Source: Desulfovibrio desulfuricans (GTDB lineage: Bacteria > Desulfobacterota > Desulfovibrionia > Desulfovibrionales > Desulfovibrionaceae). Taken from it: a stretch of DNA of 64,000 nucleotides. The stretch covers positions 30,954-94,953 of the forward strand of contig NZ_JANFYZ010000002.1 in assembly GCF_024460775.1 (NCBI RefSeq), written 5' to 3'. The translations under genes were made by a program, and so were the position numbers. Below the pieces are notes generated by a model. That model had not been told where the DNA came from and did not search any database. It was given only the letters and a program-made list of their open reading frames with translations. Below are positions 894 to 46,000 of this stretch, in pieces. Every line of letters starts with the position of its first letter. Within the stretch, counting starts at the first letter, position 1.

Positions 894-1032
894 GGCTGAT
901 TATTGTTGAAAATGTCTGTGTTGCGCTGATTTTGAAAAAATCCGCGCCACGCAAGGCTTACTGGGAAATGGCAGCAATGCTGCCGTCGTCATGCAGGTAT
1001 TTGAGCGTGAAAAGATTTTAGGGGTATGCGTC

Positions 1033-2262: not shown

Positions 2263-2289
2263 CGTTTAAAGGTGGAAGGAGAGGAGCAT

Positions 2290-3009: not shown

Positions 3010-3304
3010 ACGCTTCATCCACCGTATGGGATGATACCTGCACACCCCGTCAGCGCTGCATGCGTTGGCGGGGTGTTTGCGTGAAGTCACCAGAAAACGG
3101 CAAATTAGGTCCTAGTTCCTGATTGCAAAGGGTTAAAAAATTATAGAAAAATAGTCGTTATTTTTTTACTATTATATTTAAATAGTTATCTGAGCGGATA
3201 AAAAGAAATGCGCAAAAAATATGTGAAAAATTGCGCAGCTCCTTGACCTAAGGATTCTTCCATTCTATGTTGATCGCAGTTCATTGAGCCCGTAGGCTGA
3301 AGAG

Positions 3305-3597: not shown

Positions 3598-3901
3598 ATG
3601 CTCACGGTAAAACGCCAAGCCCTGTCTTTTCTCTATTCCTTCTTTGATAAAAAAGTAACAATTTCATTCTTATAACGGTTTGGTTATCAAAAGCGCCGCA
3701 TTGCTGTCGTTTGCTTGGCGCAAAATGGCTTTGGACGGGCAGTACGAGGTATCTGCTGTTGCATTGGATTCAAAGTGCGGTGGGTTTGCGAGTATTGGGT
3801 TTGTATTTCCACTGGCGGCAGGCCCTCTGGCCGTATTGCGCACGGTGGACGCAGGGCGTATAGTAGAGGACGTTTGTCGTAACCTTCAACCCTGCGGCGG
3901 C

Positions 3902-4705: not shown

Positions 4706-4707
4706 CT

Positions 4708-5622
4708 GTGAATATTACCGTCTTTGGCGGGTCCGGTTTTCTGGGCTCGCATATCTGCGACAAGCTTTCTGAAGCCGGGCATGCGGTCACCATTGTTGAC
4801 CTGCATCCCTCGCCATTTCTGCGGCCCGACCAGACAATGCTTGCAGGCAATATTCTGGATGAAGAAACCGTCAACCGCGCCGTTGCCGGTGCGGATATGG
4901 TCTTCAACTATGCTGGCATTGCCGACATCGGCGAGGCCAACAACCGCCCGGTGGATACTGCGCGCATCAACGTGCTGGGCAACGTCATGGTGCTTGAGGC
5001 CTGCCGCAAGGCTGGCGTAAAGCGCTATGTTTTTGCCAGTTCCCTGTACGTGTACGGAAAGTCCGGCGGTTTTTACCGTTGCAGCAAACAGGCCTGCGAA
5101 CTGTATATCGAAAACTATCAGGCCATGCACAACCTGCCGTACACCATCCTGCGTTACGGCTCGCTGTACGGCCCGCGTTCCGACCGCCGCAACGCCATCA
5201 ACAGGTTTGTTTACGAGGCGCTTGCCAACGGCGCCATCACCTACTACGGCGCGCCCACGGCCCTGCGCGAATACGTGCACGTGGACGATGCCTCGGCAGC
5301 CACCCTGGCCGTGCTTGATCCCGAGTTTGAAAACCAGAACATCATCATCTCTGGCAACCAGCCCATGCGCGTGGGTGATCTGTTCAAGATGATCGGTGAA
5401 ATGCTCGGCAAGGAACTGACCATCAATTATCAGAATGATCCCAACAGCGGGCATTATCAGGTCACGCCTTATGCCTTTATGCCCAAGGTGGGCCGCAAGC
5501 TGGTGCCGCCGCTGACCGTTGATCTGGGGCAGGGCATCCTGCGCGTGATGGAAGAGGAACACAAGGAGCTGCACCCTGAACTGGCGTCTGAGGGCGGGTA
5601 CCTCGTATCCACTGACGACTAG
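4708..5622 (+). CDS. NAD-dependent sugar epimerase/dehydratase (SDR family), GTG start
   Basis: N-terminal Rossmann motif VFGGSGFLGSHICDKL and SDR catalytic region YxxxK (YRCSK). GGGAG RBS. Follows the aldolase gene after a 2-bp gap. Confidence 0.85.
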   Translation: MNITVFGGSGFLGSHICDKLSEAGHAVTIVDLHPSPFLRPDQTMLAGNILDEETVNRAVAGADMVFNYAGIADIGEANNRPVDTARINVLGNVMVLEACRKAGVKRYVFASSLYVYGKSGGFYRCSKQACELYIENYQAMHNLPYTILRYGSLYGPRSDRRNAINRFVYEALANGAITYYGAPTALREYVHVDDASAATLAVLDPEFENQNIIISGNQPMRVGDLFKMIGEMLGKELTINYQNDPNSGHYQVTPYAFMPKVGRKLVPPLTVDLGQGILRVMEEEHKELHPELASEGGYLVSTDD

Positions 5623-5727
5623 ACCTGGGAACGGCAGTTGCTGCCGCATGGGCCTGCGCCCGTTTGCGGCATGATTGGATGCAGTTTTTTACGTACACAA
5701 ATTATTGAGGCCACAAGGAGCCGTCAG

Positions 5728-6498
5728 ATGAACATCATTGCCATCATTCCCGCGCGTATGGGGTCCAGCCGTTACCCCGGCAAACCGCTCGCCCTTATCC
5801 ACAACGTTCCCATGGTAGGGCATGTGGCCTTTCGCACGGCCATGAGCAAGTGCCTTTCCGCCACCTATGTGGCCACCTGCGACGAGATCATTGAAAATTA
5901 CTGCAAGGACGCCGGACTCAAGAGCGTCATGACGGGCGACCATCACGTGCGCTGCTCAACGCGTACCGCAGAAGCCCTGCTGAAGATCGAAGCCGCCACC
6001 GGGCAGAAGGCCGATATCGTGGTCATGGTGCAGGGCGATGAACCCATGGTGCGCCCCGAAATGATCGATGCCGCCGTGGCCCCTATGCTGGCTGATCCTT
6101 CCATCAACGTGGTCAACCTCATGGCCGATATGGATACCCTTGAGGAATTTGAAGATCCCAACGAAGTCAAGGTCGTTGTGGACCACTTCAACAATGCGCT
6201 CTATTTCTCGCGCGAGCCCATTCCTTCGCGCAAAAAGGGGTCGGACAAGGTGCCCATGCGCAAGCAGGTCTGCATCATTCCCTTCCGCCGCGACTATCTG
6301 CTGCATTTCAACGAAATGCCCGAAAGCCCGCTGGAAATTTATGAATCCGTGGACATGATGCGCATCCTCGAACACGGCGAAAAGGTGCACATGGTGCCCA
6401 CCGACTGCCGTTCGTGGAGCGTGGACACCCCTGAAGATCTGGCCCGCGTGGCCCGCCTCATGGAAGGCGATGATCTTATGAAGGAATACCGCAAGTAA
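5728..6498 (+). CDS. KdsB/NeuA-family CMP-ulosonic acid cytidylyltransferase
   Basis: Recalled similarity across the whole length to E. coli KdsB (CMP-Kdo synthetase): IIPAR..S.R.PGKPL, VQGDEPM, NPN.VKVV.D...ALYFSR..IP, H.V......VDTPEDL. AGGAG RBS before ATG at 5728. Confidence 0.88.
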   Translation: MNIIAIIPARMGSSRYPGKPLALIHNVPMVGHVAFRTAMSKCLSATYVATCDEIIENYCKDAGLKSVMTGDHHVRCSTRTAEALLKIEAATGQKADIVVMVQGDEPMVRPEMIDAAVAPMLADPSINVVNLMADMDTLEEFEDPNEVKVVVDHFNNALYFSREPIPSRKKGSDKVPMRKQVCIIPFRRDYLLHFNEMPESPLEIYESVDMMRILEHGEKVHMVPTDCRSWSVDTPEDLARVARLMEGDDLMKEYRK

Positions 6499-7278
6499 AT
6501 GGCGGGCGAGTTTAATTCCGCCCCCGAGCAAGGGGACAAGGCCGCTGACGGTTCAACAAGCGCAAGCGCCGTGGGAGCACAGACCCACGGCGCTGCCGCC
6601 GAAACCTCGGCACCGGCAGGGCAGTCTGCCCAGTCCGAAGCCAAGGCCGCCCAGCCAAAGCCGCATGCAGGGCCCGGGTTGTTCAGCCGGGTGTCGGCGG
6701 CGCTTGAAGAATTATGGCTGGCCAGCTTTGCCTGGATCCCCACGCCGGTGGGTCTTGCCTTGCGCCTGTTTGCCTGGCGGTGGCTTTTCAAAAGTTGCGG
6801 TTCGGCGCGTTTTGGCACTGGCCTGAGCCTTGCGGGCTGCCGCAACATGCGCATTGGCAACGGTGTGCGCATGGGGCGCGGCTGTTTTGTTACCGCCTCT
6901 GACGGCGAGCTTGTGCTGCACGACTGCGTGGCCCTCTCGCCCAATGTGCATGTGGGGGCAGATGCGGGCCGCATAGAAATCGGGGCGCATACCGCCGTGG
7001 GGCCAGGAACGGTTATCCGCGCGGCCAACCACTGCATTGCGCGGCAAGATGTGCCAATCATGCATCAGGGACATGTTCCCGGCCAGATTATTATTGAAGA
7101 AGACGTGTGGATTGGCGCCAACTGCGTCGTTACGCCAGATGTGCGCATTGGCCGCGGGGCTGTGGTGGGCGCTGGCGCTGTGGTTACGCGCAATGTGGCC
7201 CCCTTCAGTATTGTGGGCGGCGTTCCGGCCAAGCTTATAGGCATGCGTGGGCAGGGCGGTCAGAAGCACTGGGATTAA
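6499..7278 (+). CDS. hexapeptide-repeat (left-handed beta-helix) sugar O/N-acetyltransferase with an N-terminal low-complexity and hydrophobic extension
   Basis: C-terminal half carries repeated [LIV]G.xxx[IV] hexapeptides (IGNGVRMG, IGANCVV, IGRGAVVGAGAVV) and HxGH-like HQGH. N-terminal 80 aa are Ala/Ser/Gln-rich, followed by a hydrophobic segment. Confidence 0.75.
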   Translation: MAGEFNSAPEQGDKAADGSTSASAVGAQTHGAAAETSAPAGQSAQSEAKAAQPKPHAGPGLFSRVSAALEELWLASFAWIPTPVGLALRLFAWRWLFKSCGSARFGTGLSLAGCRNMRIGNGVRMGRGCFVTASDGELVLHDCVALSPNVHVGADAGRIEIGAHTAVGPGTVIRAANHCIARQDVPIMHQGHVPGQIIIEEDVWIGANCVVTPDVRIGRGAVVGAGAVVTRNVAPFSIVGGVPAKLIGMRGQGGQKHWD

Positions 7279-7357
7279 TGGGAGCCTTTCATGCTGAAAT
7301 GCTCTGGCTAGCGGAGGCCATGCGGCCCCGGACTCGAACAGCTTTTCAAGGAATATT

Positions 7358-7993
7358 ATGTCACTGCAATGCCTTGTTTTTGACTGCGATGGCGTCATTC
7401 TTGACAGCGTGCCCGTGAAAACACGGGCCTTTGGCCGTCTGATGGAACCGTTTGGCCCCGAGGCGCGCGACCGCTTTTTGATGTACCACAAGGTGCACGG
7501 CGGCGTGAGCCGTTACAAGAAGTTTGAGTGGTTTTATGAAGAGGTGCTGGGCAAGACCATAACCCCTGAGGAATCAGAGGGACTTGGCAACCGCTTTGCC
7601 GAATATGTGCTGGACGAACTGCGCCGTTGCGAGCTGATACCCGGCATTCAGGAAACGCTTGATTCCTGGCGCGGCAAGCTGCCCATGTTTGTCTGCTCCG
7701 GCGCGCCGCACGAAGAAGTGCTGGCCGTGCTGCGCGAGCGCAAGCTGGATGGCTATTTTGACGCCATCCACGGCTCCCCGCCAGCCAAGGCAGTGCTGCT
7801 GGCGCAGATTGTGAACACGCAGAAGCTTGACCCCGCCGATGTGCTCATGGTGGGCGACGCCCCCACGGACAGGGACGCAGCCGAAACCGTGGGTACGCTG
7901 TTTTACGGCGTGGGGCCGGAACTCAAGGGCGGCTCGTTCCCCTGGGGCGAAGACCTCACGGGCCTGAACTCCTGGATAGCTGCCCGCGCCTAG
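7358..7993 (+). CDS. HAD-superfamily (subfamily IA) phosphatase
   Basis: Motif I FDCDGVILDS, motif II-like S/T, and VGDAPTDRDAA (motif IV DxxxD). Size and cap are consistent with beta-PGM/phosphoglycolate phosphatase-like enzymes. Confidence 0.8.
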   Translation: MSLQCLVFDCDGVILDSVPVKTRAFGRLMEPFGPEARDRFLMYHKVHGGVSRYKKFEWFYEEVLGKTITPEESEGLGNRFAEYVLDELRRCELIPGIQETLDSWRGKLPMFVCSGAPHEEVLAVLRERKLDGYFDAIHGSPPAKAVLLAQIVNTQKLDPADVLMVGDAPTDRDAAETVGTLFYGVGPELKGGSFPWGEDLTGLNSWIAARA

Positions 7994-18240: not shown

Positions 18241-20679
18241 CTACTGCGCAGGCTGATTCTTGTCGTCATCGTGCTTTTCGGGCCGCAGAATGCGGCTGAT
18301 GGGCAGCGCCGTGGCCCGGCCGGAGAAGATTTCTTCTGCCGTGGCGGCAAGGGCCTGAGGCAGCACTTCATCCACATGGTCAACAAAAACGATCTCCAGG
18401 TCGCGCAGCACTTCGTCCGGCACTTCCTTGAGGTCTTTTTCATTATCGCGGGGCATGATCACTTTTTTGATACCGCTGCGGCGCGCTGCCAGCAATTTCT
18501 CTCGCAGCCCGCCGATGGGCAGCACCCTGCCGCGCAAGGAGATTTCGCCGGTCATGGCTACATCGTTGCGCACGGGAATGCCCAGCAGGGCGGAGGTGAT
18601 GGACGTCGCCAGGGTGATGCCCGCCGAGGGGCCGTCCTTGGGCGTTGCGCCAGCAGGCACGTGCACGTGGATATCTATCTTGCGGTGGAAGCGGGGATCA
18701 AGGCCCAGCACTTCAGCCCGTGAACGCACATACGAAAGGGCCGCCTTGGCAGATTCCGTCATGACTTCGCCAAGCTGACCCGTAGTCACCACATGGCCGG
18801 AACCTGCCATGAGGCTGGTTTCGACCAGCAGAATTTCGCCGCCGCGCTGGTTATAGGCAAGGCCAGCGCACACACCCACCTGAGGTTCGCTTTCGCGTTC
18901 GTCATGGCGGTATTTTTTTACGCCCAGCATGGAAGGCAGGCTCTGGCGGGAGATGTTGACGCACTTTTCGGTGTCGTCGTCTTCCACAAGCTTGATGGCG
19001 GTTTTGCGGCACAGGGCGGCAATTTCGCGTTCAAGGTTACGCACCCCGGCCTCGCGCGTGTAGGAGCGGATGATCTCGAGAATGGCGTTGTCCGACACGC
19101 GGATGTTGCCTTCCTTGAGGCCGTGCTCCTCCAGCTGGCGGGGCAGCAGGAAGCGGCGGGCGATGTGGCGTTTTTCCGTTTCAAGGTAGCTGTTGAGCTC
19201 GATGATCTCCATGCGGTCAAGCAGCGGCACAGGGATGGAGTGCAGCGAGTTGGCCGTGGTGATAAAGAAAACTTTGGAAAGATCATACTCCAGATCAAGG
19301 TAGTGATCCATGAAGGTATTGTTCTGTTCCGGGTCGAGCACTTCCAGCAGGGCCGAGGCGGGGTCGCCACGGTAGTCGGAGGTCATCTTGTCCACTTCGT
19401 CCAGGCAGAAGAGGGGATTGTTGAACTTCACCCGCTTGAGGGACTGGATGATCTTGCCCGGCAGCGCGCCCACATAGGTGCGGCGGTGCCCCCGGATTTC
19501 GGCCTCGTCGCGCACGCCGCCAAGGGAGAGGCGCACAAAATCGCGCCCTGTGGCGCGGGCCACGGACTTGGCAAGCGAGGTTTTACCCACGCCGGGGGGG
19601 CCGACAAAGCAGAGGATGGGGCCTTTGAGCCCCTGGGAAAGCTTCTGCACGGCAAGGTATTCCAGAATGCGTTCCTTGGGCTTTTCAAGGCCAAAGTGGT
19701 CGCCGTCCAGAATTGCGCGCGCCTTTTCAAGGTTGATGTCTATCTGCTTGAGGTCGTTCCAGGGCAGATCCAGAATCCAGTCCACATAGTTGCGCACAAC
19801 CGTGTATTCCGCCGCAGAGGGCGGCATGCTGCGCAGCTTTCTGGCTTCGGAGAGCGCCTTTTCGCGCGCTTCTTCCGGCATATCGCGGGCCTTGAGCTTC
19901 TGCTCTATTTCGTCAACTTCGGCCTGGGGGTCGTCATCGCGCCCCATTTCCTTGTTGATGGCCTTGATCTGCTCATTGAGGTAATATTCGCGCTGGTTGC
20001 GCTCCATCTGCACCTTGACGCGGTTCTTGATGCGCTTTTCAACCGTGGCAAGGGCCACCTCGCCCTGCAAAAGCTCATAGGCAAGCTCAAGGCGCTGGGT
20101 GGCGTCGTCGATCTCAAGGGCTTCCTGCTTTTTGCGGTAATCAACCTTGAGGTGCGGGATGATGGCATCGGCCAGAGGGCCGATTTCCTGCAAGGCAAGA
20201 ATGGAGAGCACGGCCTCCTGCGAAATCTTTTTGTTGTTCTTGCCGTATTCTTCAAGCGCCTCGTGCACGGCGCGCACCAGAGCCTCGCGCTCTTCGGGGC
20301 GGCTCTGCTTTTCGGCGCGGCGGCGCACGCCCACCATGGCGCACTGCTCGTCTTCGTGCAGGTTTTCCCAAGTGGCGCGATATACGCCTTCAAACAGCAC
20401 CTTGATGGTGCCGTCGGGCAGGCGCAGCATCTGAAGCACCTTGCTGACCACGCCTACAGGCGAAAGATCCTGAGCATCGGGCTTTTCCAGCTCCGGCTCG
20501 CGCTGGGCCACAAGAAATATCTGCTTGCTGTAGGTGGCCTGTGCGGCTTCGATGGCCTTGATGGAGGCCTCGCGCCCCACAAAGAGCGGCATGATGGAGC
20601 GGGGGAACATGACCACCTCGCGCAAAGGCATGATGGGCAGTTCAATATAAGCGTCAGAGCCGCGCATTTCGTCTGTCAT
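18241..20679 (-). CDS. lon: ATP-dependent protease Lon (La)
   Basis: 812 aa. Lon N-terminal substrate domain. Walker [10 protein letters not shown]. Catalytic serine motif [14 protein letters not shown] and downstream lysine. Confidence 0.96.
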
Positions 20680-20979
20680 AATTCTCCCCTGAAAAAAAGC
20701 CGGACGGCGGCCTGCGCCGCCCGGCGGAACTTAGAGCTTTTTTGCCGTGAAATGCCTGCGTCAGGCGGGGTGTTTGCTGTTGCCCTGCGGCTGGCTGGCC
20801 GAAGAGCGCAAGGGTCGCCTTGCAGTCTATTCCACAGCGCGGATTTGAGGAAAACCCGCACGGTGCGCCGCAACTCTAATGTTGCCAACGCGCCAGCTTT
20901 AACCTGCGGGGTCAAGCCATTGGCGGTACCCCTTTACGTGCCTGCTGCATGGCAGAACGCGCGCAATTCAGGCGGCTGG

Positions 20980-22272
20980 CTAAGAGGCCTTGTCGCCCCC
21001 GGCCTGGGCCTTGGACGTATCGGCGTTTTCTGCCTTGTCGCCAAACAGCAGCACCGGTTCCTTGCCCTTGTCGATAACAGCCTGATTGATCAGGCATTCG
21101 CGCACATTGGGCAGGGAAGGCAGCTTGAACATGATGTCGAGCATGGTGCGTTCCATCACGTTGCGCAGGCCGCGAGCGCCCGTTTTGCGCTCAATGGCTT
21201 TGGCGGCAATGGCCTTGAGGGCATTGGGCGTAAAGCGCAGGTCAACATTCTCAAGCTCAAAAAGCTTCTGGTACTGGCGCACCAGAGCGTTCTTGGGTTC
21301 GGTGAGAATGCGCACCAGATCGGGTTCGTCCAATTCGTCCACATGGGTGATGATGGGGATACGGCCCACAAATTCGGGGATGAGGCCGAACTTCACCAGA
21401 TCTTGCGGATGCACCTTGTCGAGCAGTTCGCCAAGGGGCATTTCCTTGCTGGCGCGCACCTTGGCGCCAAACCCCATTGCGCCGCCGCTCATGCGGCCGC
21501 CCACGATCTTGTCCAGACCCACAAAAGCGCCGCCCACGATGAACAGGATGTTGCTCGTGTTCATGCGGATAAATTCCTGCTGGGGGTGCTTGCGCCCGCC
21601 CTTGGGAGGAATATTGGCCTCGGTGCCTTCGATGATCTTGAGCAGGGCCTGCTGCACGCCTTCGCCGGAGACGTCGCGCGTGATGGAGGGGCCATCGCCC
21701 TTGCGGGAAATCTTGTCGATTTCGTCAATATAAATGATGCCCTTGCTGGCGGCTTCCAGATCATAGTCCGCATTCTGGAGCAGTTGCACCAGGATGTTTT
21801 CCACGTCTTCGCCCACATAGCCAGCTTCCGTGAGGGTCGTGGCGTCGGCAATGGCAAAGGGCACGCGCAGAACGCGGGCCAAAGTTTTGGCAAGCAGGGT
21901 TTTACCGCTGCCCGAGGGGCCGACAAGGAGGATGTTGCTTTTTTCAAGCTCAACCTCGTCGCCCAGGGCGCTGGCGTAAAACACCCGCTTGTAGTGGTTG
22001 TGCACCGCTACAGAAAGGATTTTCTTGGCCTCGTTCTGTCCGATGACATACTGGTCAAGGCGATCCTTGATTTCCTGGGGCGAAAGAAGGCGTTCTTCGC
22101 TCTGGGGGCTTTCCATCTGGTCGCGGGCGATAATTTCGTTGCAGGCCTTGATGCATTTGTCGCAAATGCTGGCGCCGTCCTGCACGATGAGATTGCGAAC
22201 CTCAAGCTCGCTGCGCCCGCAAAAGGAGCAGCGCAGGGGTTCGCTCACCGTAGGTTTATCGTTCTTGGCCAT
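20980..22272 (-). CDS. clpX: ATP-dependent Clp protease ATP-binding subunit ClpX (start at MAKNDKP; ORF opens at 22326)
   Basis: N-terminal C4 zinc finger CSFCGRS...CDKC. Walker A GPSGSGKT. Signature IGFGA pore loop. Confidence 0.95.
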
Positions 22273-22273
22273 A

Positions 22274-22882
22274 TTACTCGCTCTTTTCCTGAGCCATTTC
22301 ATTGCGCGATACAAGCACGCGGTCAATGATGCCGAGTTCCTTGGCTTCCTCAGGAGTCAAAAAGTTATCGCGTTCGGTAGCTTTGACAATATCCTTGTAG
22401 GGACGGCCCGTGTTGTCGGCCAGCATGCGGTTGAGGCGTTCCTTGAGGCGCAGCACCTCGCGCGCGTGGATTTCAATATCCGTGGCCTGGCCCTGAAAAC
22501 CGCCCGAAGGCTGGTGAATCATGATCTGACTGTTGGGCAAAGCAAAACGCATGCCAGGCTTGCCAGCGGCCAGCAAGAATGCGCCCATGCTGGCGGCGCG
22601 GCCCATGCACACAGTCGCCACAGGCGAGGAGATAAAGCGCATGGTGTCATAAATGGCAAGCCCGGCGGTAACAGAGCCGCCGGGGGAATTTATGTAGAGA
22701 TAGATTTCTTTTTCGGGGTCTTGCGATTCAAGGAAGAGCAACTGGGCGCAGATGAGGGAAGCAACGGTATCGTTGACCTCGGAGCCAAGCAAAACGATGC
22801 GGTCCTTGAGCAGACGCGAATAGATGTCATAGGCCCGCTCGGAGCGGCCTGTGGTTTCAATAACCATGGGGACAAGCGACAT
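22274..22882 (-). CDS. clpP: ATP-dependent Clp protease proteolytic subunit ClpP (start at MSLVP; ORF opens at 22933)
   Basis: [12 protein letters not shown] (catalytic Ser region) and the ...MIHQPSGG... His region. Confidence 0.95.
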
Positions 22883-22979
22883 ATGAGCCTCTTGGCACGG
22901 CGTGTGGGCCGGTTGGGTGCGGTGTTGCCGCAAAATAAAACCAAAAGGCGGCCTTAAGGCCGCCTCCCTTATACTTCAG

Positions 22980-24323
22980 TTAGTCCTGAGCGCTGGCGGG
23001 TGCGCCCGGCGCGGCGTCGCCCTCGGCTGGCGCCTTGGGCTCCACTTCGGTCACCTTGGACTTGGCGTAGATCAGATCCATGGCCTTGTCGGCCAGCATG
23101 CGGTCACGCAGCACAAAGATCATTCCCGAGCGTTCATAGCTTTCACGCAGGGTCTTGAAATCTTCGCCAGTGCGCATGCTCATCTGGTAAATCTGAGTGT
23201 TGACCTCATTGTCGGTAACGTCAAGTGCTTCTTTCTTGGCGATGGAAAGCAGCAGAACCTGCGAGCGGGCCAGTTCGTCAGCCTGGGGCTGCACTTCGGC
23301 GCGCAGTTCGTCCATGCTTTTGCCAAGAGAATCAAGGCTGCGGCCCTGACGTTCAAAGCGGGCGGCCATGTCGCCCAGCAGGGTGCGCACCTGGGTGTCC
23401 ACAAGGCTGGGGGGCAGTTCAAATTCAACCATCTTCAGCAGACGGTCAAGCAGGGTCTTCTGCGCGGCGCTCTTGTTGAGGTTGACGCGGCTCTGGGTGT
23501 AGCTGCCGGTGATGGCTTCGCGCAGTTTTTCCACGCTTTCAAGGCCAACGGTCTTGGCGAGGTCGTCGTTCAGTTCAGGAAGCTTGCGCTCCTTGATGGC
23601 GTGCACGCGTACCTTCATGGTGACGGTTTTGCCTGCCAGATCCTTGGCAAGAAAATCTTCGGGGAAGGTGATCTGGCCTTCGCCTTCTTCGCCGTAGCGG
23701 ATGGTCTTCACCAGGGCTTCAAAATCTTCAAGAGCCTGACGTTCGCCAAGGGCGAGGTCAAAGCTTTCGGCCTTCACGCCTTCCAGGGGTTCGCCGTTTT
23801 CAAAGGCGGCAAAGTCGATGGTGGCAACCTGACCGTCCACAGCGGGGCCAGCGCCTTCAACGGGCACAAGCTCGCCACGGTCGCGGCGGATGCGGTCGAT
23901 AACTTCCTGCACTTCCTTTTCGTCCACGACCACTTTTTCCTGCTCCACTTCCATGCCTTCATAAGGAGGAAGGGTGAAGGAGGGCAGCACTTCAAATTCG
24001 ACGCTGTATTCGTAGCCCTGACCGCGTTCAAAGGTGCCCTTGGCGTCCACGTCAACGCCGGCGAGGGGCGAAACGTCGAGCTTCTGCATCACGTCGTTGA
24101 TGTGGACGTTGATCAGATCCTGGCGGGCTTCTTCATAAATCTTGTCGCGGAAGCGCTGCTCGATGACCGACGCCGGAACCTTGCCCTTGCGGAAACCGTC
24201 CAGCTGCACCGATGTTTTGTACAGCGCCACGGCGCCCATGATGGCTGCTTCCACTTCCTGGGCTTCGGTGGTGATGACGACCTTTTTTCTGACCGGCGAA
24301 ATGTCTTCTGCGCTATATTCCAC
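22980..24323 (-). CDS. tig: trigger factor (ribosome-associated PPIase chaperone)
   Basis: 447 aa. N-terminal ribosome-binding signature GFRKGKVP. Sits in the conserved position upstream of clpP-clpX-lon. Confidence 0.93.
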
Positions 24324-24351
24324 GAGGGACTCCTTTTCTTGGTGAGGTAGA

Positions 24352-24435: not shown

Positions 24436-24680
24436 AAAGCGTGTTTCCATAGCACACTTGCCGGTGGGCTGCAAGCCGTGAGCGGCGCGCCTGATGCCGG
24501 GTCTGTGCCGGGCGGGAGGGCGTTAACCGAAAATCTCCGTCATAAATAAGTCGCAATGGCGGTACGGCAAGCAATTTTTTTTAAAAAACTGGCCGAAATT
24601 ACTATCCCGGTGCGGAGCGCGCGGCGCGTGGACGGCATGCGCCGCATATCCAGCTCAGACTCGGCCGCACCCGTGCGGCT

Positions 24681-25739
24681 TCAGCGCAGCACCAGGGCTG
24701 CGCCGTCAGGCCTTGGTGCAATAATCTCGCCCACCTCGCAGGCCAGATCACCCCCGGCCAGCAGCATTTCGCGGGCCTGCGGCACCAGCTCTGGCGGCAC
24801 GGCCAGCAGCAGCCCGCCGGAGGTCTGCGCGTCAAAGGCGAGGCTCGTGAGCGCTTCGTCCACGCCGTCTTCCACACGAGTGGAACAAGCCCAATATTTT
24901 CGGTTCAGGTGGCTGCCTGCGGGTATAAGCCCATCGCGCGCGTACTCAAGGGCCCGAGGCATGAGGGGCAGTGCCTCGGCATTCAAGACCACGGTAACGC
25001 CCGAGGCAAGGGCCATTTCAAGCGCGTGCCCGCCAAGGCCAAAGCCTGTTATGTCTGTGGCTGCGGCGATTTTGAGGTCGCGCACGACGCCTCCGGCAAC
25101 ACTGTTGAGGCGGGAGCACCAGCGTGTTACCTCGGCCTCGCTTTCTTCGGCTCCATCCCAGCGGGCCTTGACCGCAGTGGCGAGCACTCCCGTGCCCAGC
25201 GGTTTGGTCAGCAACAGGGTCTGGCCCGGTTTCAGGCCATCGTTGCGGGCCATGTGGGAGGGGTCTATGATGCCCGTGACCGCCAGACCGTACTTGAGTT
25301 CCTCGTCCTGCACCGTGTGGCCGCCAGCCAGCACGGCCCCGGCCTCATTCATGGCGTCAAGGCCGCCGCGCAAAATGTTTTCCAGTATGTGCTGCGGGTC
25401 GTCCTCTGCCAGAGCCTGCGGAAAAAAGGCCACGTTCATGGCGCTCCACGGCTGGCCGCCCATGGCGTAGACATCCGAAAGCGCGTTGGCGGCGGCAATG
25501 CGCCCAAAGGCAAAGGCATCGTTGACAATGGGCGCAAGAATATCCACGGTCTGCACCAGGGCGCAGCCAGGGGGAACGGTCAGCACCACGGCGTCTTCGT
25601 TCCGGGCGCGACCAGCCAGAACCCTGGCCTCAAGGTCAGGGCGCGTATCAGACGGCAGGCCGTGTAAAAGTCGCTCCAGGGCCCCTGGAGCCAGCTTGGC
25701 GGCTCAACCGGCCGCGCGGGCTTTTTCCAGCAGTTTCAT
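24681..25739 (-). CDS. selD: selenide, water dikinase (selenophosphate synthetase) SelD, a selenoprotein with in-frame UGA (Sec) at 25704-25706
   Basis: Hand translation upstream of the tracked ORF (24681-25589) stays in frame: AGGGAG RBS, ATG 25739, then MKLLEKARAAG-U-AAKLAPGALERLLHGLP... through a single TGA into ...VLTVPPGCALVQTVDILAPIVNDAFAFGRIAAANALSDVYAMGG and the rest of SelD (TDITGFGLGGH, DAQTSGGLLLAV). The UGA replaces the catalytic Cys of the E. coli GCGCK motif, as in Sec-type SelD. Confidence 0.85.
25660..25703 (-). promoter_or_regulatory. putative bacterial SECIS hairpin downstream of the selD UGA
   Basis: mRNA reads UGA GCC GCC AAG CUG GCU CCA GGG GCC CUG GAG CGA. That gives a GCUCCAG-GGGCC-CUGGAGC stem-loop starting ~10 nt after the UGA, with a G-rich apical loop ~20-25 nt downstream, the usual spacing for bacterial SECIS. 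Confidence 0.5.
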
Positions 25740-25906
25740 GCTGCGCTCCCTGGTATTTTTGTGTTCATCCGCCAAGTATGCCTTCTTGAAGGTAAAAGGT
25801 CAAAATGTGGCATATTGACGACTGAACCATTATAATGTGCAATGCCGAACTGGTGTAACGGGTTTTGCCGTCAGCGCAGGGTGCTGAAAAAATTAAGGAG
25901 ACGACC

Positions 25907-37185: not shown

Positions 37186-37929
37186 TCAACAGGCAAGGTG
37201 GACCACGACGTCCAGGCAGGGGCTATGGGCCGCAACGCTGCACTGGTAACCATCTGTTGTTCTGATGTCGCGGCTTGTCCACTGCCCGCCACCCTCAAGC
37301 ATTGCAGCCATGCCGTGAACAGCATTTGCAGTGAAGGATGCTATCCAGCCGCTCTCTTGCGGCCCGGTGTGCACGCTGAAGCTTTGCAAGGGCATGCTCA
37401 GGCCCATGCCCACAGCCTTGATTACGGCCTCCTTGCGCGTCCAGCAGCGGTAAAAGGCCGCTTGCAGTTCCCCAGGGGGCAGGGACAGCAGGTCTTTTTG
37501 CTCCTGCGGATGCAGCTGGCTGGTCAGCTCCGCCGCATCGGGCAGAGGGCGCATCCTTTCCACATCAATGCCCACGCTTGCGCAGCGGCAAAGGGCCACC
37601 CACACCATGCTGCCCGAATGGCTGATGGAAAAATCAGCGGATATTCCGGGGCAAAAGGGCTTGCCGTAAGGGGAGCGGGCTAACTCTGCGGCACTGTTCT
37701 GCCCAAAGGCGGCGAGCAGCAAACGCCGCGCCAAAGCTCTGCCTGCCAGATGCCGCGCCGCATCTTCTATGCGTACGTAGCGCCCGGCCTCCTGCTGCTC
37801 CTGCGGGGAGGTGTGGGGCGCGCACTTGCTGGGCCAGTCCGCAATATTTTCAAGCTCCAGGCCAACGCACAAAATGGATTTTTCCGGGGCGGACGGCGCG
37901 CGCCAGTTGCAAAAACGTTGCGCCAGCAC
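37186..37929 (-). CDS. Sfp-type 4-phosphopantetheinyl transferase
   Basis: Motifs SPYGKP, FSISHSGSMVWVAL, GIDVERM (PPTase GxDxE) and WTRKEAVIKAVG (W/KEA.xK). Confidence 0.85.
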   Translation of the reverse strand: MLAQRFCNWRAPSAPEKSILCVGLELENIADWPSKCAPHTSPQEQQEAGRYVRIEDAARHLAGRALARRLLLAAFGQNSAAELARSPYGKPFCPGISADFSISHSGSMVWVALCRCASVGIDVERMRPLPDAAELTSQLHPQEQKDLLSLPPGELQAAFYRCWTRKEAVIKAVGMGLSMPLQSFSVHTGPQESGWIASFTANAVHGMAAMLEGGGQWTSRDIRTTDGYQCSVAAHSPCLDVVVHLAC

Positions 37930-37932
37930 CGC

Positions 37933-38649
37933 CTAATCCGTTGTTTGAAGGGTGCGGGTCATGTGGTCTGCCAGTTCCTGCCAGTGGTCCTGAACGTAAA
38001 AATGGCCGCCGCTGAAGGTGCGTACCGTGCATTGCGCGTCTGTCAGGTTTTGCCACTGCAGGGCGTCAGCCTCGGTAACGAGGTCGTGGCTGCCGATGGT
38101 GGTGTGGATAGGCAAGGGCAATGGGCTGTAGGGGGCGGGCTGCCAGCCCTCGATGGCCATAAAATCAGCGCAGAGCACAGGTTCAAGGTAGTTTCTGAAA
38201 TCCTGCGACTGCGCAATCTCGGGCGGGATGCCGCCCATGCGGGCCACGTAGTCCCACAGCGCGCCTGGGGGAAGCTGATCAACAGGGCGTGAAATCCCGG
38301 TGCGCATCAGCCCTGGCGTGGTGGCGGACGAAATGAACAGGGCCTTGGGCAAGGGCAGTGCCGCATCGCAGGCGAAGCGCGCGCAAAGAAAGGCCAGCAG
38401 GCCGCCCATGCTGTGGCCAAAAAGGGCGTAAGGGCCAGTGTGGGCGGCGGGGTGTATCTGCTCAAGCAGGTCGCGCCCCATGCTTTCCATGTTGGTAAGC
38501 AGCCGCTCCCGGCAGCGGCGGCCTTTGCCCGGCAGTTCCAGAGGTCTTGTAGTGATCCATGCCGGAAAAAGCTCGTTGAACCTCGCATAAAAGGCGGTAT
38601 TGCCTCCGGCGTGGGGAATGCAGAAAAGTGTTGTAGCCGAGTGTTGCAT
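37933..38649 (-). CDS. type II thioesterase (alpha/beta hydrolase, editing TE)
   Basis: LFCIPHAGGNTAFY, GHSMGGLLAFLCA (GxSxG) and C-terminal His. 238 aa, typical TEII size. Confidence 0.85.
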   Translation of the reverse strand: MQHSATTLFCIPHAGGNTAFYARFNELFPAWITTRPLELPGKGRRCRERLLTNMESMGRDLLEQIHPAAHTGPYALFGHSMGGLLAFLCARFACDAALPLPKALFISSATTPGLMRTGISRPVDQLPPGALWDYVARMGGIPPEIAQSQDFRNYLEPVLCADFMAIEGWQPAPYSPLPLPIHTTIGSHDLVTEADALQWQNLTDAQCTVRTFSGGHFYVQDHWQELADHMTRTLQTTD

Positions 38650-38658
38650 GTGTTGCGC

Positions 38659-39795
38659 CTACAGTTCAACCCATCCGGCATCGTCAGCAAGCTTTTGGAT
38701 GATGATGCGCGAGGCCTGTTCTTCGTGTCCGATGCGGGCATGCATCTGTTTGAGAACAATATTGCCCTCGCTGATGCCGCAGATTTCCAGTTTGCCGATG
38801 TCGTGCCCGATTATGTACTTGAAGCGTTTTCCATAGCCGCTGAGTTGCGCCTTGGCCTTATCCACAATGGCAATGCCCTGCTTGAGAGGCAGTTGAAAAT
38901 GGTGCCGTACCCGCGAAACAGGCATGCACTGGTACAGATAATACGGGTTCACCCCAATGGAAAGCAGGCGGTTCATAAGTTCGACAATGTCTTCCACACT
39001 GTCGTTGACGCCGCGCAGCAGCACCGCCTGATTGTTGATGGTGGCCCCGCACAGGCGCAGCCTCTTGATGGCCTCGGTCGAGGTGAGCGTGATCTCTCGC
39101 GCATGGTTGTAGTGCGTGGCAATGTACAGAGCCTTGCGCTCGGCAAAGGCGCGCAGGGCGTCCATGAGGGCGTCTTCAAAGATGCGCAGCGGGTAGGTGA
39201 CAGGAATGCGCGTACCGATACGCACAAAATCCACATGGTCGATCTCGGCCAGCCCCTCCAGCATTTTTTGCAGCACCGGGGTTGCCAGAGTCAGTGGATC
39301 GCCGCCGGAAAGAATGACGTTGTTGATCTTGGGATTGTCGGCAATGTATTGCAGCGCCCCGGCAAAGTTGCGCAAGGTCTGCTGGCTGGAGTGCCCCACA
39401 ATACGGCGGCGAAAGCAGTGGCGGCAGTGCATGGCGCAGCATTCTGTTGTGATCAGCAGTGCAGTGCAGTCGTATTTATGCAGTACGCCATTGCCCTTGT
39501 CGTGCTTGTCATCACCGTAGGGATCGGCAGTAGTCGCGCCCATGGATCCGGCAACCACCAGTTCTTCCGCATCAGGAAAGCACATGCGACGGATGGGATC
39601 ATTGGGATCGTTTTTATCTATAAGGCTCAGATAATAGCGGGGAATGTTGACCGGGTGCACCTTGGCGACTTCACGAAGCGTTGCTTCCTCTTGTGGACTG
39701 AAGGTGGCGTATTGCTTCAACTGGTCGATGGTGACGACGTTGTTTGCAAGTTCCTTTTTCCAGTCAAGGCATTTCCAGCAAGGTTCAGCGTCCAT
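38659..39795 (-). CDS. KamA-family radical-SAM amino acid 2,3-aminomutase (lysine 2,3-aminomutase-like; start at MDAEPCWK with GAGG RBS, ORF opens at 39891)
   Basis: CxxxCxxC cluster CAMHCRHCFRRR. Recalled similarity to lysine 2,3-aminomutase over ~350 aa: RYYLSLIDKNDPNDPIR, ALLITTECCAMHC, ILSGGDPLTL, VRIGTRIPV, LLRGVNDSVE, NPYYLYQC. Confidence 0.85.
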   Translation of the reverse strand: MDAEPCWKCLDWKKELANNVVTIDQLKQYATFSPQEEATLREVAKVHPVNIPRYYLSLIDKNDPNDPIRRMCFPDAEELVVAGSMGATTADPYGDDKHDKGNGVLHKYDCTALLITTECCAMHCRHCFRRRIVGHSSQQTLRNFAGALQYIADNPKINNVILSGGDPLTLATPVLQKMLEGLAEIDHVDFVRIGTRIPVTYPLRIFEDALMDALRAFAERKALYIATHYNHAREITLTSTEAIKRLRLCGATINNQAVLLRGVNDSVEDIVELMNRLLSIGVNPYYLYQCMPVSRVRHHFQLPLKQGIAIVDKAKAQLSGYGKRFKYIIGHDIGKLEICGISEGNIVLKQMHARIGHEEQASRIIIQKLADDAGWVEL

Positions 39796-40032
39796 TATTC
39801 CGGCCTCTGTTTGCGGATGGATTTTCTGTTGTTCAGGTGTGTTGGACGTTCCAGAACAACCGGATACAGAGTTATTGTTGAGGAAATGCATTCAATATCC
39901 GGTTTGCGTTCTGTTTGTGAATTTACGGCAAAAACTGCCCAAAGTATATGTAAAACTTGCTAATATACAGGCCGTGAGCTATTTTGCCCACCATATTGCA
40001 CTAAGCGCATTAAAGCCGCAGTGGGGGACGGA

Positions 40033-43000
40033 ATGGCAAAGATTGTGCCTTTAACCGGTTGTCAAAAAGAACTGTGGCTCTCGGCAAAAGCGGCGCTGTC
40101 CGACTATGCCGAAACCTCCATTCGGGGCTGTTATCACATTGACGCCCTGCTTGATCCCGATTTGTTGCGCCAGGCCATCAAGCGCACCCTGCATTTCACG
40201 CCTCTGCCCGCCGCCTCCCTGTGTCAGGATGAAGCCGAACCGTACTTTCTTGTGGGTGAACCGCAGGAACCTGATTTCAGGGTCCTGGACGCCGCTACGC
40301 AGCCGGACCCCGATGCCGCTGCCGACCGCATGATCGACGAGTTTTTTGAAGAACCGGTCGAAAATCCCCTTATGCGTTATGCCCTTGTCATCACTGGCGA
40401 GGCAAGCTGCATCGTTGCCATGAAGTGCTCGCACGTGGTGCTGGACGGGCTGGCATTCTTTTTTCACATAGCTGTTATTGCGGACGTTTACACAGCACTC
40501 GCACGTGGTGAAACGCCAGAACTTGGCGAGCCGTGCTCCTGCGAAGAAGCCTACCTTGAAGATCAGGCGCACTGCGCTTCGCCGCGGTTTCAGAAAGACA
40601 TGACCTTTTGGCAGGAGCACCTTGCCCGCCTGCCAGAAAAGCGCCTGCTGCGCGCCCTGCCGGGGCGGCCCGATGTGCTTGGCGAGAGCCGCCACCAGAA
40701 GTTTGTGCTGTCAGAAAAAACCTCGAGTGAAACGTCCGCGCTCATTGCCGCCCACAAGGTCAGCCCTGCGGTGTTTTTTACAGGCATCTACGCACTCATC
40801 GTGTCGTTCATGAGCGGAGAAAAGGACATTGTGGCTCTTGCCCCAGTGGCCTATGGGGAGCGCAAGGTGCTGTACCGGCGGCAGGGGGCCATGATGTCGC
40901 TGCCGCCACTGCTGGTAAACGTGGCCGCGCACGATACCTTTGCAGGGCTGCTGGAGGCCGTCAGCGCCCAGAACGGATCCTTTTACCGCCATGTGCGCAC
41001 GCCTTACCAACTGGCTGCCCGCCAGCTTGAAGGCAAAAATTTTGCCTTTCTGGCAGATACCTTTGTCAATTTTCTGCCCAATACACCTCCCGGCACGCCA
41101 GAATTCCCGATTGTCGAGGCGGAGCAGCGGCACAGCGCCAAGGAGCCGATCCTTTTCGGTACCCTGGTCATGCAGGAGCTGCGCTCGGGCTGCTTTTCGC
41201 TCACGGTGCGCAACAGCCGCAACCACCTGAGCGACAGGGATGTGGAGCGTTTTGTCGCCCGCGTTGAGAGCGTGGTGGCCCAGCTTGCCGCTGGCATTGA
41301 GCCGCCGCAGCTTGATTATCTGCTGGAAGAAGAAAAGCGGGAACTCGCGCAATGGCGCAGCGGCCCTGCCAGAAAGTATGATATCCGTTCCCTGCCCGAA
41401 CTTTTTGACGCGGCGGCGGATGCCTTTGCCGGGCGCGTTGCAGTCAGGGACGAATGGGGCAACTCCCTTTCGTACGCGCAGGTGCGCGAAAATTCCCTGC
41501 GTTGCGCCTCGTGGCTGGCAGGGCAGGGCGTTGCACGGGGCGGCATTGTGGCTGTGGCGGCGCAGCGCACGGCCAATCTGCCCGAAGTTGTTCTGGGCAT
41601 ACAGCGGCTTGGCGCGGTCTATCTGCCCATAGACCCCAAGGCCGCACCCGACCGCATGGCCTATATTGTGGAAGACGCCGGGGCAGACATCACGCTTGAC
41701 CTTGCCGATCTTGCCTACCGCCAAGCCCCCATAAGTCCCTTGCCGCAAGCACCCCGGGCAGAGGATGGGGCCTACCTGATCTACACCTCCGGCTCCACAG
41801 GCAAGCCCAAGGGCGTGCTGGCTCCGCACGGCGGCTTTGCCAACATGATCCAGGGGCAGATCGAGCTTTTTGGCGTGCAGGCCGATGACCATGTGCTGCA
41901 GTTTGCGCCGCCCATTTTTGACGCCTCGCTGTCGGAAATGTTCATGGCTCTGCTGGCAGGGGCCGCCCTGTATCCGGTGAGCGACCAGTGCCGCAACGCC
42001 CCCTGGACGTTGCGGCAGTACATGATCGATAACGACATCAGCATTGTCACCCTGCCGCCCTCGTACCTCAATCTTTTTGAGGGAGAGCCCTTTCCCGGAT
42101 TGCGCGTGCTCATAACGGCGGGCGAGCCGCCGGTGGTGGGCGATGCCCTGCACTATGCCAAGGGCCTGCGTTATTTCAACGCCTACGGCCCTACGGAAAC
42201 CTGCGTCTGCGCGGCAATGAAGGAAGTTTCGCCCTTTGAGCCGCAACCCATTGGCGTGGGCAGCCCCATCCCCAACGTGACGCTTTCCATCCGCAATGCC
42301 GAGGGGCGCGAGCTGCCCGCAGGCATGGCGGGCGAACTGTGGATAGGCGGGGCCAGCCTTGCCCTTGGCTACCACAACAAGCCTGAAATGACGGAGCAGC
42401 GTTTTGTCCATCTGCCGCAGGAAGGAAACGCCCGCTTTTACGCGTCCGGCGATCTGGCCTTGTGGTCGGACAAGGGTGAGATTCTGCTGCTGGGCCGCGC
42501 AGACGATCAGGTGAAGATTCGCGGCAACCGGGTGGAGCTGGCCGAGGTGGCCTGCCTGCTTGAGAGCTGCGAAAGCGTCAGTCAGGCGGCGGTGCTGGCC
42601 GTCAAGGATGCGGGCGGTCAGGCCAGCCTTGCGGCGTTTTTTGTGCTGCGGCCCGGCGCATCCATAGAAGCGGTGGTTTCGTGGAGCAGAACAAGCCTGC
42701 CGCCCTACATGGTGCCCTCAGCCTGGCATGTGCTGGAAGCTATGCCTCTTGCCCCCACAGGCAAGATAGACCGCAAGGCACTGCAAAGCCTTGCACGGCG
42801 GGGCGATGCTCAGGGCGGCAGTGTCCGCAAGCCCCATGCTGGCCTTCTGGAGATATTTGAGCGCGTGCTTGGCCGGGCCTATGATCCCGAAAAGAGCTTT
42901 TTTGCCCAGGGCGGCAACAGCCTTAACGCCATGTCGTTGCTGCACGCCATCCGAAAAACCTTTGACGTTGATATTTCCTTCCGCAGTTTTGTCAGCTGTG

Positions 43001-46000
43001 AAACGCTGTTTGATGTGGAATCCCTGCTTGGCGGCGTCCGTGCGGAGTCGGCCCTTGCAGGCATTGAAAGCGCGCCGCTCAGCACCGGGCAGTTCCGCAT
43101 CTGGGCCTACCAGCAGGTTAACGAAGGCTCCATTGACTACAATATGCCCCTGCTGCTTGAACTGCGGGGCGACAAAACTGCGGATTTTCTGGAAGGCCTG
43201 CGCAGGGCTGCCAACGCGCAGGAGCTTTTTCACTGCACGGTGGCGGGCGATATAGACAATCCCCATTTTGCGCGGGGCAAGGGCGAGGTCTACCTGTGCA
43301 GCGTGGCCATTGCCGATGCGCGCGAAGCGGCGGTATTTTTTGACCAGCAGATACACACGCCTTTTGACCTGCGTGTGGAGCCGCCTGTGCGCCTTGTGGC
43401 CGCTGTTTTGCCGCAGTGCGTTCAGGTGCTTGTGCTGGTGCACCATGTGGCGGGCGATGGCGAAACCCTTGAAATCCTGCTGCAAAATGCCTTGCGCTAT
43501 TTGCGCGGCGAGCCGCCCGCGTGCGGTCTGCTGGCTGTGCAGGAGGCTTTTTGCCGCAGGCAGGCCGCCTATGCGGCATCGCCAGCCTGCGCAGATGATG
43601 CGGCCTACTGGCAGGAGGTGCTTACGCCGCCCGTGCCCACTGTGAATCCGGCCACAGGGGCCGCCAGCCGCAAAGGCGCCATGATCGGCGTTGATCTTGA
43701 TGCGGAAACCGCGCAGGGATTTGAAATTCTGGCAAGAAATTCTGGCGCGAGCGTGCTGGCCTGCTTTGTGGCCTTGGCGGGGCGCGCACTCTGCCGCCGC
43801 TTTGACAGAAAAGAACTGTTGCTGGGCGTGCCTATGGGGCTGCGCGAAACGCAGGACGAATTTTGCGCTGCCGGATTCTACGTCAACACCGTCCCCCTGC
43901 GTGTGCGCCTTGACGGCCTTGAAGACAGCGCCGCAGTGGCCGATGCCGCCCGGCAGATGCGGCAGGCCATTGAACACAGCCGTTACTGCGCTGCGGATAT
44001 TGTACCCGAATTTCTGGCAACGCATGCGCATTTTGAACCTGTGGGAGTTCCGGGGCTTGAACTGAACAGGCTGGAGCTGGAATTGCGGGCCAGCAAGCTC
44101 ACAGCCAGCTTTACCCTCGTAACAGGCACGGCTTCGCGCATTGTGCTGGAGTACGACGCGGGTTGCATAGCCGATGCCCCGGCTTTGCTGGATGATCTGG
44201 CGCAGAGCATGCGACGTGCCTGCGAAGGCCTTGCCCGCCGCAATCCCCGGCAGGTACTGGCCGATGCCTGGCGCGAGATTCTGCACCCCGGCAGTTCCAG
44301 CGCAGTGCAGGAAGAAAGCGACTTTTTCCGCGATGGCGGTGATTCCATCAAGGCTATCCAGATAACGGGCATTCTGCGCCGCAGCGGCATAACCGCCTTG
44401 AGCGCGCCGGATTTTTTGCGCAAGCCCCACTTTGGCGACCTCTGCACCCTGCTGGAAAGCGCCGACAGCGAGCTTTCTGCCGCGCAGGCGATGGACTACA
44501 CGCCTGTTGCCCCTGGCGAGCAGGTTCCCTTGCTGCCATTTGCCCGCTATTTTCTGGGTGCGCATCCCAGTCACTGGCGGCAGTTCTTCATGCTGCTGCC
44601 GCTGGAAATTCGCTCGGATGTGCCAACGGCAAGCATTGAAGCATGGCTGCAAACCCTGCCGGAAAATCACGAATCCCTGCGCATGGCCTTTGCGCCGGAT
44701 CATGCCGTGCTGCTGGCCGAACCGCAAAAAATAACCCTGCACTGCCGCGATTTCGCCGACACTGTGGAGCAGACAAGCCTGCTGCGCAAGGCGGTGGCGG
44801 AGATCACAGAGGGCCTTGATGCGGCATGCGGCAAAACTCTGGGGGCCATGCTGGCCCGGCAGGGCGAGAGGCGCTTCTTGCTGCTGGTGGGGCATCACCT
44901 TGCGCTGGACGCGCTTTCGCTTGAAACCCTGCGGCAGGGCTTGCTCCATTACTGCCGCACAGGCAAAGCCCAGTGCGAAGCGCACGGCCTTGCCCTGCGC
45001 GCCCGCGAGGTTGAGCGGCTGCGCGCCGCCGGGGTATTCCCGTCTGAGGAACAGCGCGCCTTGTGGCGGGCTGCCTGCGCCGAACCATGCGAACCCTTGC
45101 GGGCTCTTTTGCCCCAGAGCAGGGACAGGGGCCGGGACAGCGCCGCCAGCCGTGCCCGTCTGTCCGCGCAGCTTGAGGGCTTCCGGCAGGAATACAGCAC
45201 CGATGCCAAGGCCGATCTGCTGGCCGCGCTTGCCTGCGCCCTGCACGCCCAGGGGCAGAAGGCGGCGGTGCGCGTAACACTTGAAAGCCACGGGCGCGAT
45301 GAACTTTTGTCGGGCTTTGACGCCAGCCGCAGCCTTGGCTGGTTTACGGCGGTCTGCCCCATGCCGCTTGGGCCTTCCCTGAACTACGCGCAGGCCCGCG
45401 AAGCCCTCGGCCCGTGGCTTGCGCAGCATTTCAGCCCGGAAAACTGCAATGCCTATGGGTATCTGCGGCAGGAAAATCCGGCTGAATTTGGCTATGCGGC
45501 CCAGATTGCCTTTAACTATCTGGGGCGTTTGACGGGTCAGCCTGACGAAGAGGCCTCCCTGATGCTCTCGGCTCTGGCTCCGGGGCTTATCCCCGAGCTT
45601 GTCCACGCCGACATGGAGGCGGATGCTCCGCTGGAGCTTTCGGTTTTTTTTGACCAGCAGGGCATCCTGCATCTCGGGGCGTGGTTCAGCCCGCAGTGCC
45701 TGCCGCAGGATTGGGTTTCCGGCTTGCTCCAGAGTTGGCGTGCCGCCCTGAAAACCCTGCCCGCCTATCTGCCGCAGCAGACCCTGGATGCCATTTTTGC
45801 CGCCTGCGGCTGCCATGCGGAGGATGTGGAGCGCATCGCACAGCCGGATGCAGGGCATGCGCCCTTGCTGTATCAGTCCCTGCTTGCGCAATCTGGGGTT
45901 TACACCCAGCAGGTGGAATTTCATTTTCGCGGCCCGGTGGATGTTTTTGCGCTCATGCGCGCGTGGGAAGCGCTCACCGCGCGGCACGAAAGCCTGCGTT

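Follow-up and report, generated by a model that had tools for sequence, protein, structure and literature searches.

The selD locus

The stretch of DNA analysed here, hereafter called the window, comprises 64,000 nucleotides (64 kb) of Desulfovibrio desulfuricans (contig NZ_JANFYZ010000002.1 of assembly GCF_024460775.1, positions 30,954 to 94,953), and the gene in question is selD, which encodes selenide, water dikinase (selenophosphate synthetase). All positions given below are those of the window, and all features of selD lie on its minus strand. The full-length coding sequence (24681–25739) consists of 352 sense codons and a stop, provided that a UGA at codon 12 (25704–25706), the only internal TGA of the frame, is read through, putatively as selenocysteine (Sec). 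Direct reading of the sequence confirmed that the frame can be extended through this single TGA to an ATG (25737–25739) preceded by a Shine-Dalgarno-like AGGGAG (25746–25751) at a spacing of 6 nt, as had been proposed in an earlier, sequence-only reading of this DNA. The first codon is conserved in relatives, and translation from it opens MKLLEKARAAG*AAKLAPGALE, where the asterisk stands for the UGA (in a longer reading, MKLLEKARAAG*AAKLAPGALERLL). The same earlier reading had pointed out that a mechanical list of open reading frames (ORFs) holds only 24681–25589, a frame without an ATG, at this locus; this proved correct, as the sole selD entry both in that list and in public annotations is an ORF of 302 aa that starts with GTG.

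The real stop codon of selD (24681–24683) is also UGA, so that the same triplet would be read in two ways within one mRNA. As the terminal codon is UGA too, discrimination between the two must be local. With one recoded and one terminal UGA, selD would lend itself as a built-in control in the study of context-dependent decoding.

For the family tests, we used the 352-aa product with Cys put in for the UGA. The extended translation, whose alignment to the family had been suggested as a check, matched the NCBIfam equivalog TIGR00476 (selD) with 322.2 bits, against a cutoff of 125, over residues 3–317 of 352; a second SelD equivalog, NF002098, scored 270.6 bits, under its cutoff of 299. The product contains the Pfam domains AIRS (PF00586, 79.9 bits) and AIRS_C (PF02769, 60.6 bits), and aligned with Escherichia coli SelD (PDB 3u0o) over residues 2–349 (E = 3.7e-57). 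With the family profile starting at residue 3 and the E. coli protein at residue 2, the extension recovers the conserved SelD N-terminus, MKLLEKARAAG-U-AAK.

In the alignment with 3u0o, the UGA falls exactly on Cys17 (G11-U12-A-A-K15 versus G-C17-G-C-K20, within the E. coli segment G-A-G-C-G-C-K). Further along, K15 corresponds to Lys20, D49, D66 and D89 to Asp51, Asp68 and Asp91, and the D of 'AATDITGFGL' to Asp227. We take Cys17 and Lys20 (and Asp51) to be catalytic residues of the E. coli enzyme, and Asp51, Asp68, Asp91 and Asp227 to be its metal/ATP-binding aspartates. Judged by its sequence, the locus appears to be a complete and functional selD, in which the catalytic N-terminal residue is predicted to be selenocysteine.

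Codon 12 among relatives

Searching a single genome of each species yielded 41 related loci (designated by L numbers below). Codon 12 is TGA in 38 of them and a Cys codon in the other three: TGT in L021, a Desulfovibrio metagenome-assembled genome (MAG), and TGC in L035 (Gemmatimonadota) and L040 (Acetobacteraceae). Together with the position of the UGA on E. coli Cys17, this distribution supports the proposal that Sec takes the place of the catalytic Cys. The TGA-bearing loci include Desulfovibrio, Mailhella and other Desulfovibrionaceae, one Thermodesulfobacteriota MAG, two Gemmatimonadota MAGs and one Planctomycetota MAG. The nearest are D. desulfuricans-group genomes with 98% identity, including the complete chromosome NZ_CP176628.1 and D. 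desulfuricans SFAD67. Among the 120 best homologues listed, the only full-length match is P0040, a 71% identical Cys form that spans the N-terminal extension; it reads MNLLEKTRAAGCAAKL, with 'TRAAGCAAKL' around the Cys.

One related locus departs from this picture in another way. In L032 (3001–4055, a water-buffalo rumen MAG), the selD frame that opens at the ATG closes after 249 codons, which points to a frameshift or to faulty assembly of this record.

A conserved hairpin downstream of the UGA

A hairpin of the type of a Sec insertion sequence (SECIS) lies at 25673–25691, where 25691–25684 pairs with 25680–25673 around a GGC loop (25683–25681). Its sequence, GCUCCAGG-GGC-CCUGGAGC, forms a perfect, GC-rich stem of 8 bp with a 3-nt loop, which becomes GGGCC if the closing pair is open. 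The sequence-only reading had placed a hairpin with a G-rich loop about 10 nt after the UGA; the hairpin and its loop were recovered, whereas the stem starts 12 nt past the UGA, and at 10 nt only if a U25693–A25671 pair across a G·G mismatch is counted. The minimum free energy (MFE) of the 23-nt core is −14.9 kcal/mol (z = −3.1), and none of 200 shuffled sequences folded as well.

The consensus model of bacterial SECIS elements (bSECIS; Zhang & Gladyshev 2005, as summarised in PMC13188914) specifies a loop of 3–9 nt with an upper stem of 4–16 bp and an MFE of at most −7.5 kcal/mol (PMC13188914, Fig. 2A), at least one G within the first two nucleotides of the loop (as a rule GG or GU), and a distance of 16–37 nt from the UGA to the loop (PMC13188914). 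The hairpin agrees with the model on all four counts, with its 3-nt loop on an 8-bp stem, GG at the start of the loop, a distance of 20 nt (25703–25684) and the MFE given above.

For comparison among relatives, 32 distinct Sec-form sequences were aligned from the UGA. RNAalifold predicted the same stem for them, with columns 17–23 paired with columns 27–33. When the structure derived from the window was imposed on the alignment, 80.9% of cells were paired in register, versus 29–47% with the 3′ side slid by 1–3 nt, and both the covariation score and the counts of double changes lay above those of all 500 shuffles. Columns 24 and 25, at the start of the loop, are G in at least 90% of the sequences, and L024 carries a compensatory change from G–C to A–U in the stem.

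The stem-loop also encodes part of the protein, and the hairpin could be a mere by-product of the conservation of the A-P-G-A-L-E peptide, with no function in the RNA. This explanation can draw on the peptide being kept in most Desulfovibrio Sec forms and on the small number of truly independent compensatory changes; we nevertheless consider it very improbable. Among 30 distinct Desulfovibrio-type coding sequences, synonymous positions are almost frozen in codons 17–22, which are exactly those of the stem-loop (synonymous diversity 0.058, the lowest of any six-codon window of the gene, against a mean of 0.49), whereas codons for the same amino acids, and more broadly the Ala, Lys, Leu and Arg codons that flank the stem-loop, vary freely. 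The distant Sec forms L036, L037 and L039 encode other peptides with other stem sequences, and still have a hairpin at the equivalent place. The Cys forms, in turn, have lost the APGALE peptide and retain at most a weakened remnant of the stem (−10 kcal/mol for a 42-mer of L021).

L021 (3001–4053, Desulfovibrio sp. Hs463_bin8), considered together with the protein P0040, is a case in point for the Cys forms: its selD has TGT, although the Desulfovibrio relatives that surround it are of the Sec type. It has the peptide ASEDLE in place of APGALE along with the weakened hairpin remnant, and from these features looks like a recent Sec-to-Cys conversion. Conversions of this kind with remnant SECIS-like hairpins were described by Zhang et al. 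2006 (PMC1794560).

The start of selD and its short annotated product

Every automatic gene call reports a start of selD downstream of the TGA. If the real start were there (at GTG 25589 or elsewhere), the upstream 150 nt would be an untranslated leader, and the hairpin would have another role, such as attenuation or protein binding. The segment in question, however, shows conservation at the protein level and agrees with the N-terminal part of SelD both in Cys-type homologues and in TIGR00476, from profile position 2. The 302-aa ORF begins past Asp49, and its product would be without Sec12, Lys15 and Asp49, the equivalents of E. coli Cys17, Lys20 and Asp51. The starts chosen by gene callers also differ between relatives, and it is the upstream ATG and its Shine-Dalgarno sequence that are conserved, but not the sequence 5′ of both: a comparison of upstream regions found GGAG or AGGAG at the equivalent place in most relatives, while upstream of the conserved ATG the sequence has diverged and contains in-frame stops in many related loci. 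A start downstream of the TGA therefore seems to us highly improbable. An in-frame TTG 12 codons before the ATG (25775) was also considered as a start and rejected, as the region before the ATG shows no conservation at the protein level and has stops in relatives.

Public records contain the short product. An entry identical to the 302-aa translation is SBV94800.1 (UniRef100_A0A212J5T3), which bears the title 'Selenide, water dikinase [uncultured Desulfovibrio sp.]', and further GenBank records hold the product of the same truncated gene (MPL56987.1 and KAF5075207.1). On metagenomic contigs, many of them from human gut samples, the 302-aa call was found in 4 of 4 inspected. Among the 120 best homologues listed, 119 are N-terminally short and cover 84–96% of the query, with lengths of, for example, 302, 313, 328 and 337 aa. 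An exact look-up of the full-length product, with X at codon 12, showed it to be absent from the protein collection.

Selenocysteine machinery and the decoding of codon 12

In three rumen or caecum Desulfovibrio MAGs (L018, L019 and L032), a tRNA-SeC(TCA) gene lies on the opposite strand about 2 kb downstream of a Sec-type selD. In L018 (3001–6209), selB (657 aa) is situated between selD and tRNA-SeC, which makes a compact selD-selB-selC cluster; at this position, the window and most relatives have tRNA-Leu and tig instead. No selA was found upstream of selD in L018. Orthologous SelB proteins, which carry the winged-helix domains specific to SelB, occur in other D. desulfuricans genomes (QCC84554.1, and QTO40077.1 on CP072608.1), and no tRNA-Sec was found beside selB in the D. 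desulfuricans loci L046–L048. The samples listed for two SelB proteins (P0282 and P0278) do not overlap the four listed for the selD of the window. The refuting condition named in the earlier reading, a genome devoid of selA, selB and tRNA-Sec, is thus answered for the species or lineage rather than for the strain.

These arrangements bear on the possibility that the UGA is read through without Sec, by a near-cognate tRNA for Trp, Cys or Arg, and that the hairpin is a generic stimulator of read-through. Stable hairpins past stop codons can indeed stimulate read-through in other systems. Here, however, the UGA stands exactly at the catalytic Cys/Sec site, the conserved GG in the loop is what is expected of a SECIS that binds SelB, the spacing fits the bSECIS model, and selB and tRNA-Sec lie directly beside selD in related MAGs. 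We accordingly give read-through of this kind only a minimal chance. Last, the TGA could stem from faulty sequencing or assembly, or be a nonsense mutation of recent date, in a gene that would be a Cys-type selD or a pseudogene; this reading is already effectively refuted. A single base separates TGA from TGC or TGT and Cys-type homologues are known (L021, L035, L040 and P0040), but 38 of 41 genomes, all assembled independently, have the TGA at the identical codon, and its split with Cys is the classic Sec/Cys signature, which excludes a sequencing error. In the collection, contigs in 76 blocks contain the exact gene (23 contigs read), the reading frame continues unbroken before and after the TGA, and the downstream hairpin is under strong purifying selection.

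Several observations weigh against recoding by SelB and a SECIS. Neither selA nor selB nor tRNA-Sec (selC) was found within the 64-kb window. Windows of 42–71 nt around the hairpin are not thermodynamically exceptional in GC-rich DNA (z = −0.66 to −0.80), and because folding over these wider windows is not significant, the support for the hairpin comes from the comparative evidence. That evidence is itself qualified, as most sequences of the covariation set are close relatives and the codons of the stem specify a peptide that is conserved too; part of the stem conservation thus reflects shared ancestry. Searches of Rfam gave no SECIS match to the hairpin at the gathering threshold or at E values up to 10, only chance miRNA- or CRE-like matches; as bacterial SECIS elements are short and family-specific, we give this null result little weight. 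With these points taken into account, the sequence evidence makes SelB- and SECIS-dependent recoding of UGA12 in a Sec-type selD very highly probable.

Beyond selD, scanning of the other ORFs in the window revealed no known selenoprotein family and no further selenoprotein candidate. A scan of the window for ORF pairs split by TGA, based on GC content at third codon positions (GC3), was dropped: antisense frames had equally high GC3, and the selD UGA came near the bottom of the list. The earlier suggestion that other selenoproteins may be mis-split in this genome is nevertheless reasonable.

A side observation concerns the surroundings of selB. In D. desulfuricans CP072608.1 (L046, 8076–9785), a 569-aa pyridine-nucleotide-disulfide oxidoreductase is encoded directly 3′ of selB, an arrangement kept in all contigs seen. 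The copies in L052 and L053 show a faint match to a rhodanese domain, and it is possible that this oxidoreductase is tied to selenium or sulfur delivery.

Surroundings of selD and other features of the window

Upstream of selD lies a divergent gene for a VanX-type D-Ala-D-Ala dipeptidase, and downstream follow tRNA-Leu(TAG), tig, clpP, clpX and lon. From consensus scans, we infer a promoter-like pair, TTGACC-17 nt-CATACT (25775–25803), and, weakly, a terminator-like hairpin with a T-run (24584–24610). L010, L011, L012 and L017 have the TTGACC...CATACT pair as well, although their upstream regions have diverged in other respects; terminator-like matches are no more frequent in the region than in shuffled sequence. 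With a predicted promoter of its own, its own start and Shine-Dalgarno sequence and the terminator-like hairpin, selD looks monocistronic. Long antisense ORFs of 250 to 1178 aa run on the plus strand opposite selD, tig, clpX and lon (24556–25470, 24909–25667, 22902–24350 and 18793–22329); they result from the base composition of this DNA, with 59% GC.

Elsewhere, the window contains a large hybrid biosynthetic cluster of nonribosomal peptide synthetase–polyketide synthase (NRPS-PKS) type (37186–60401). It includes an uninterrupted ORF of 5610 aa on the plus strand (40021–56853) with condensation, adenylation, PCP, KS, DH and KR domains, followed on the same strand by a 1183-aa protein (56850–60401) with adenylation, methyltransferase, PCP and thioesterase domains. 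Upstream in the cluster, on the minus strand, are genes for a radical SAM protein (38659–39891), a type II thioesterase (37933–38649) and a phosphopantetheinyl transferase (37186–37929). A literature search on a D. desulfuricans NRPS-PKS cluster found nothing relevant, and a megasynthase for a secondary metabolite in a gut sulfate reducer may merit a study of its own.

Near the start of the window are flagellar rod and ring genes (108–3090; flgG-like, flgA and flgH). They are followed by a sugar-nucleotide block (3680–7993) that encodes an HpcH-type aldolase, an epimerase, a cytidylyltransferase, a hexapeptide acyltransferase and a HAD phosphatase, and that resembles a pathway for CMP-nonulosonic acid or flagellin glycosylation.

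Discussion

By breadth of distribution, SelD ranks second among bacterial selenoproteins (PMC1794560), and its listing for D. vulgaris and D. desulfuricans in the selenoproteomes published by Zhang et al. 2006 (Genome Biol 7:R94; PMC1794560) agrees with the earlier statement that a Sec-type SelD is typical of selenium-using Desulfovibrio. With this Deltaproteobacterial Sec-SelD, the gene of the window has in common the family, the position of Sec in the N-terminal loop, the UGA with a downstream hairpin, and the genus (by name also the species). There is no substantive difference between them, and the window gene represents another strain or MAG lineage. The 'D. desulfuricans' genome of 2006 was probably that of strain G20, which was later reclassified. 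The finding is thus already known in kind, family and genus; it is textbook, not new.

Two SelD proteins of known structure frame the comparison at the protein level. E. coli SelD (3U0O) shares the fold and family, aligns over the full length and has Lys20 and Asp51, Asp68 and Asp91 in common with the window product, but carries Cys17 where the window gene has UGA/Sec, and its gene has no recoding hairpin. Aquifex aeolicus SelD (2YYE/2ZOD) is nearly identical around this residue (SSG-C-AAKV in the crystallised protein versus AAG-U-AAKL in the window); the native protein is a selenoprotein, and the crystals contain an engineered Sec-to-Cys variant. It comes from a different phylum, and its phmmer match is weaker than that of the E. 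coli protein (E = 3e-48 versus 3.7e-57), with an alignment that ends at residue 321.

The hairpin can likewise be set beside the SECIS of E. coli fdhF and the bSECIS model, with which it shares a stem-loop inside the coding sequence 3′ of the UGA, a stem that starts at about 11 nt, a small apical loop opened by G(G/U) and a distance within 16–37 nt. It differs from the fdhF element in its perfect, GC-rich 8-bp upper stem, its 3-nt GGC loop and the lack of a bulged U. The bulged U is important in the fdhF SECIS.

We propose that translation of selD would begin at ATG 25739 and that the UGA at codon 12 would be recoded to Sec, with the hairpin 12 nt downstream (8-bp stem, GGC loop) acting as a bacterial SECIS. 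A complex of SelB, GTP and Sec-tRNA(Sec) would bind the hairpin and, competing with release factor 2, deliver Sec at the A site of the ribosome. The resulting G-U-A-A-K loop would be the selenium-binding loop of SelD, which transfers the γ-phosphate of ATP. At the terminal UGA, which has no such hairpin, translation would terminate. Gene callers take the first UGA as a stop and arrive at the 302-aa product from the downstream GTG, with three catalytic residues missing. We infer SelB binding and the actual insertion of Sec from these features, and any selenium-dependent feedback would be a further inference; autoregulation of selD is plausible, given that SelD cannot be made without its own product.

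The practical value of the finding lies in annotation hygiene, as public records carry a catalytically incomplete product of selD. Metabolic reconstructions and protein-family alignments that are built from such calls take over an N-terminus that is catalytically dead. Further genes with an internal UGA in genomes of this kind, including those for FdhA, [NiFeSe] hydrogenase, HesB-like proteins and others, are probably also split or shortened by standard ORF calling.

More speculatively, the UGA and SECIS at codon 12 might constitute a selenium-sensing, positive-feedback switch in gut Desulfovibrio, and the unusually perfect, bulge-free 8-bp stem with its GGC loop might also mark a lineage-specific mode of SelB–SECIS recognition; this reading as a whole we hold to be rather unlikely. 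If such a feedback switch exists, selenium starvation would leave only an 11-residue peptide of SelD and turn off all use of selenium, and renewed supply would restart the loop from residual SelD.

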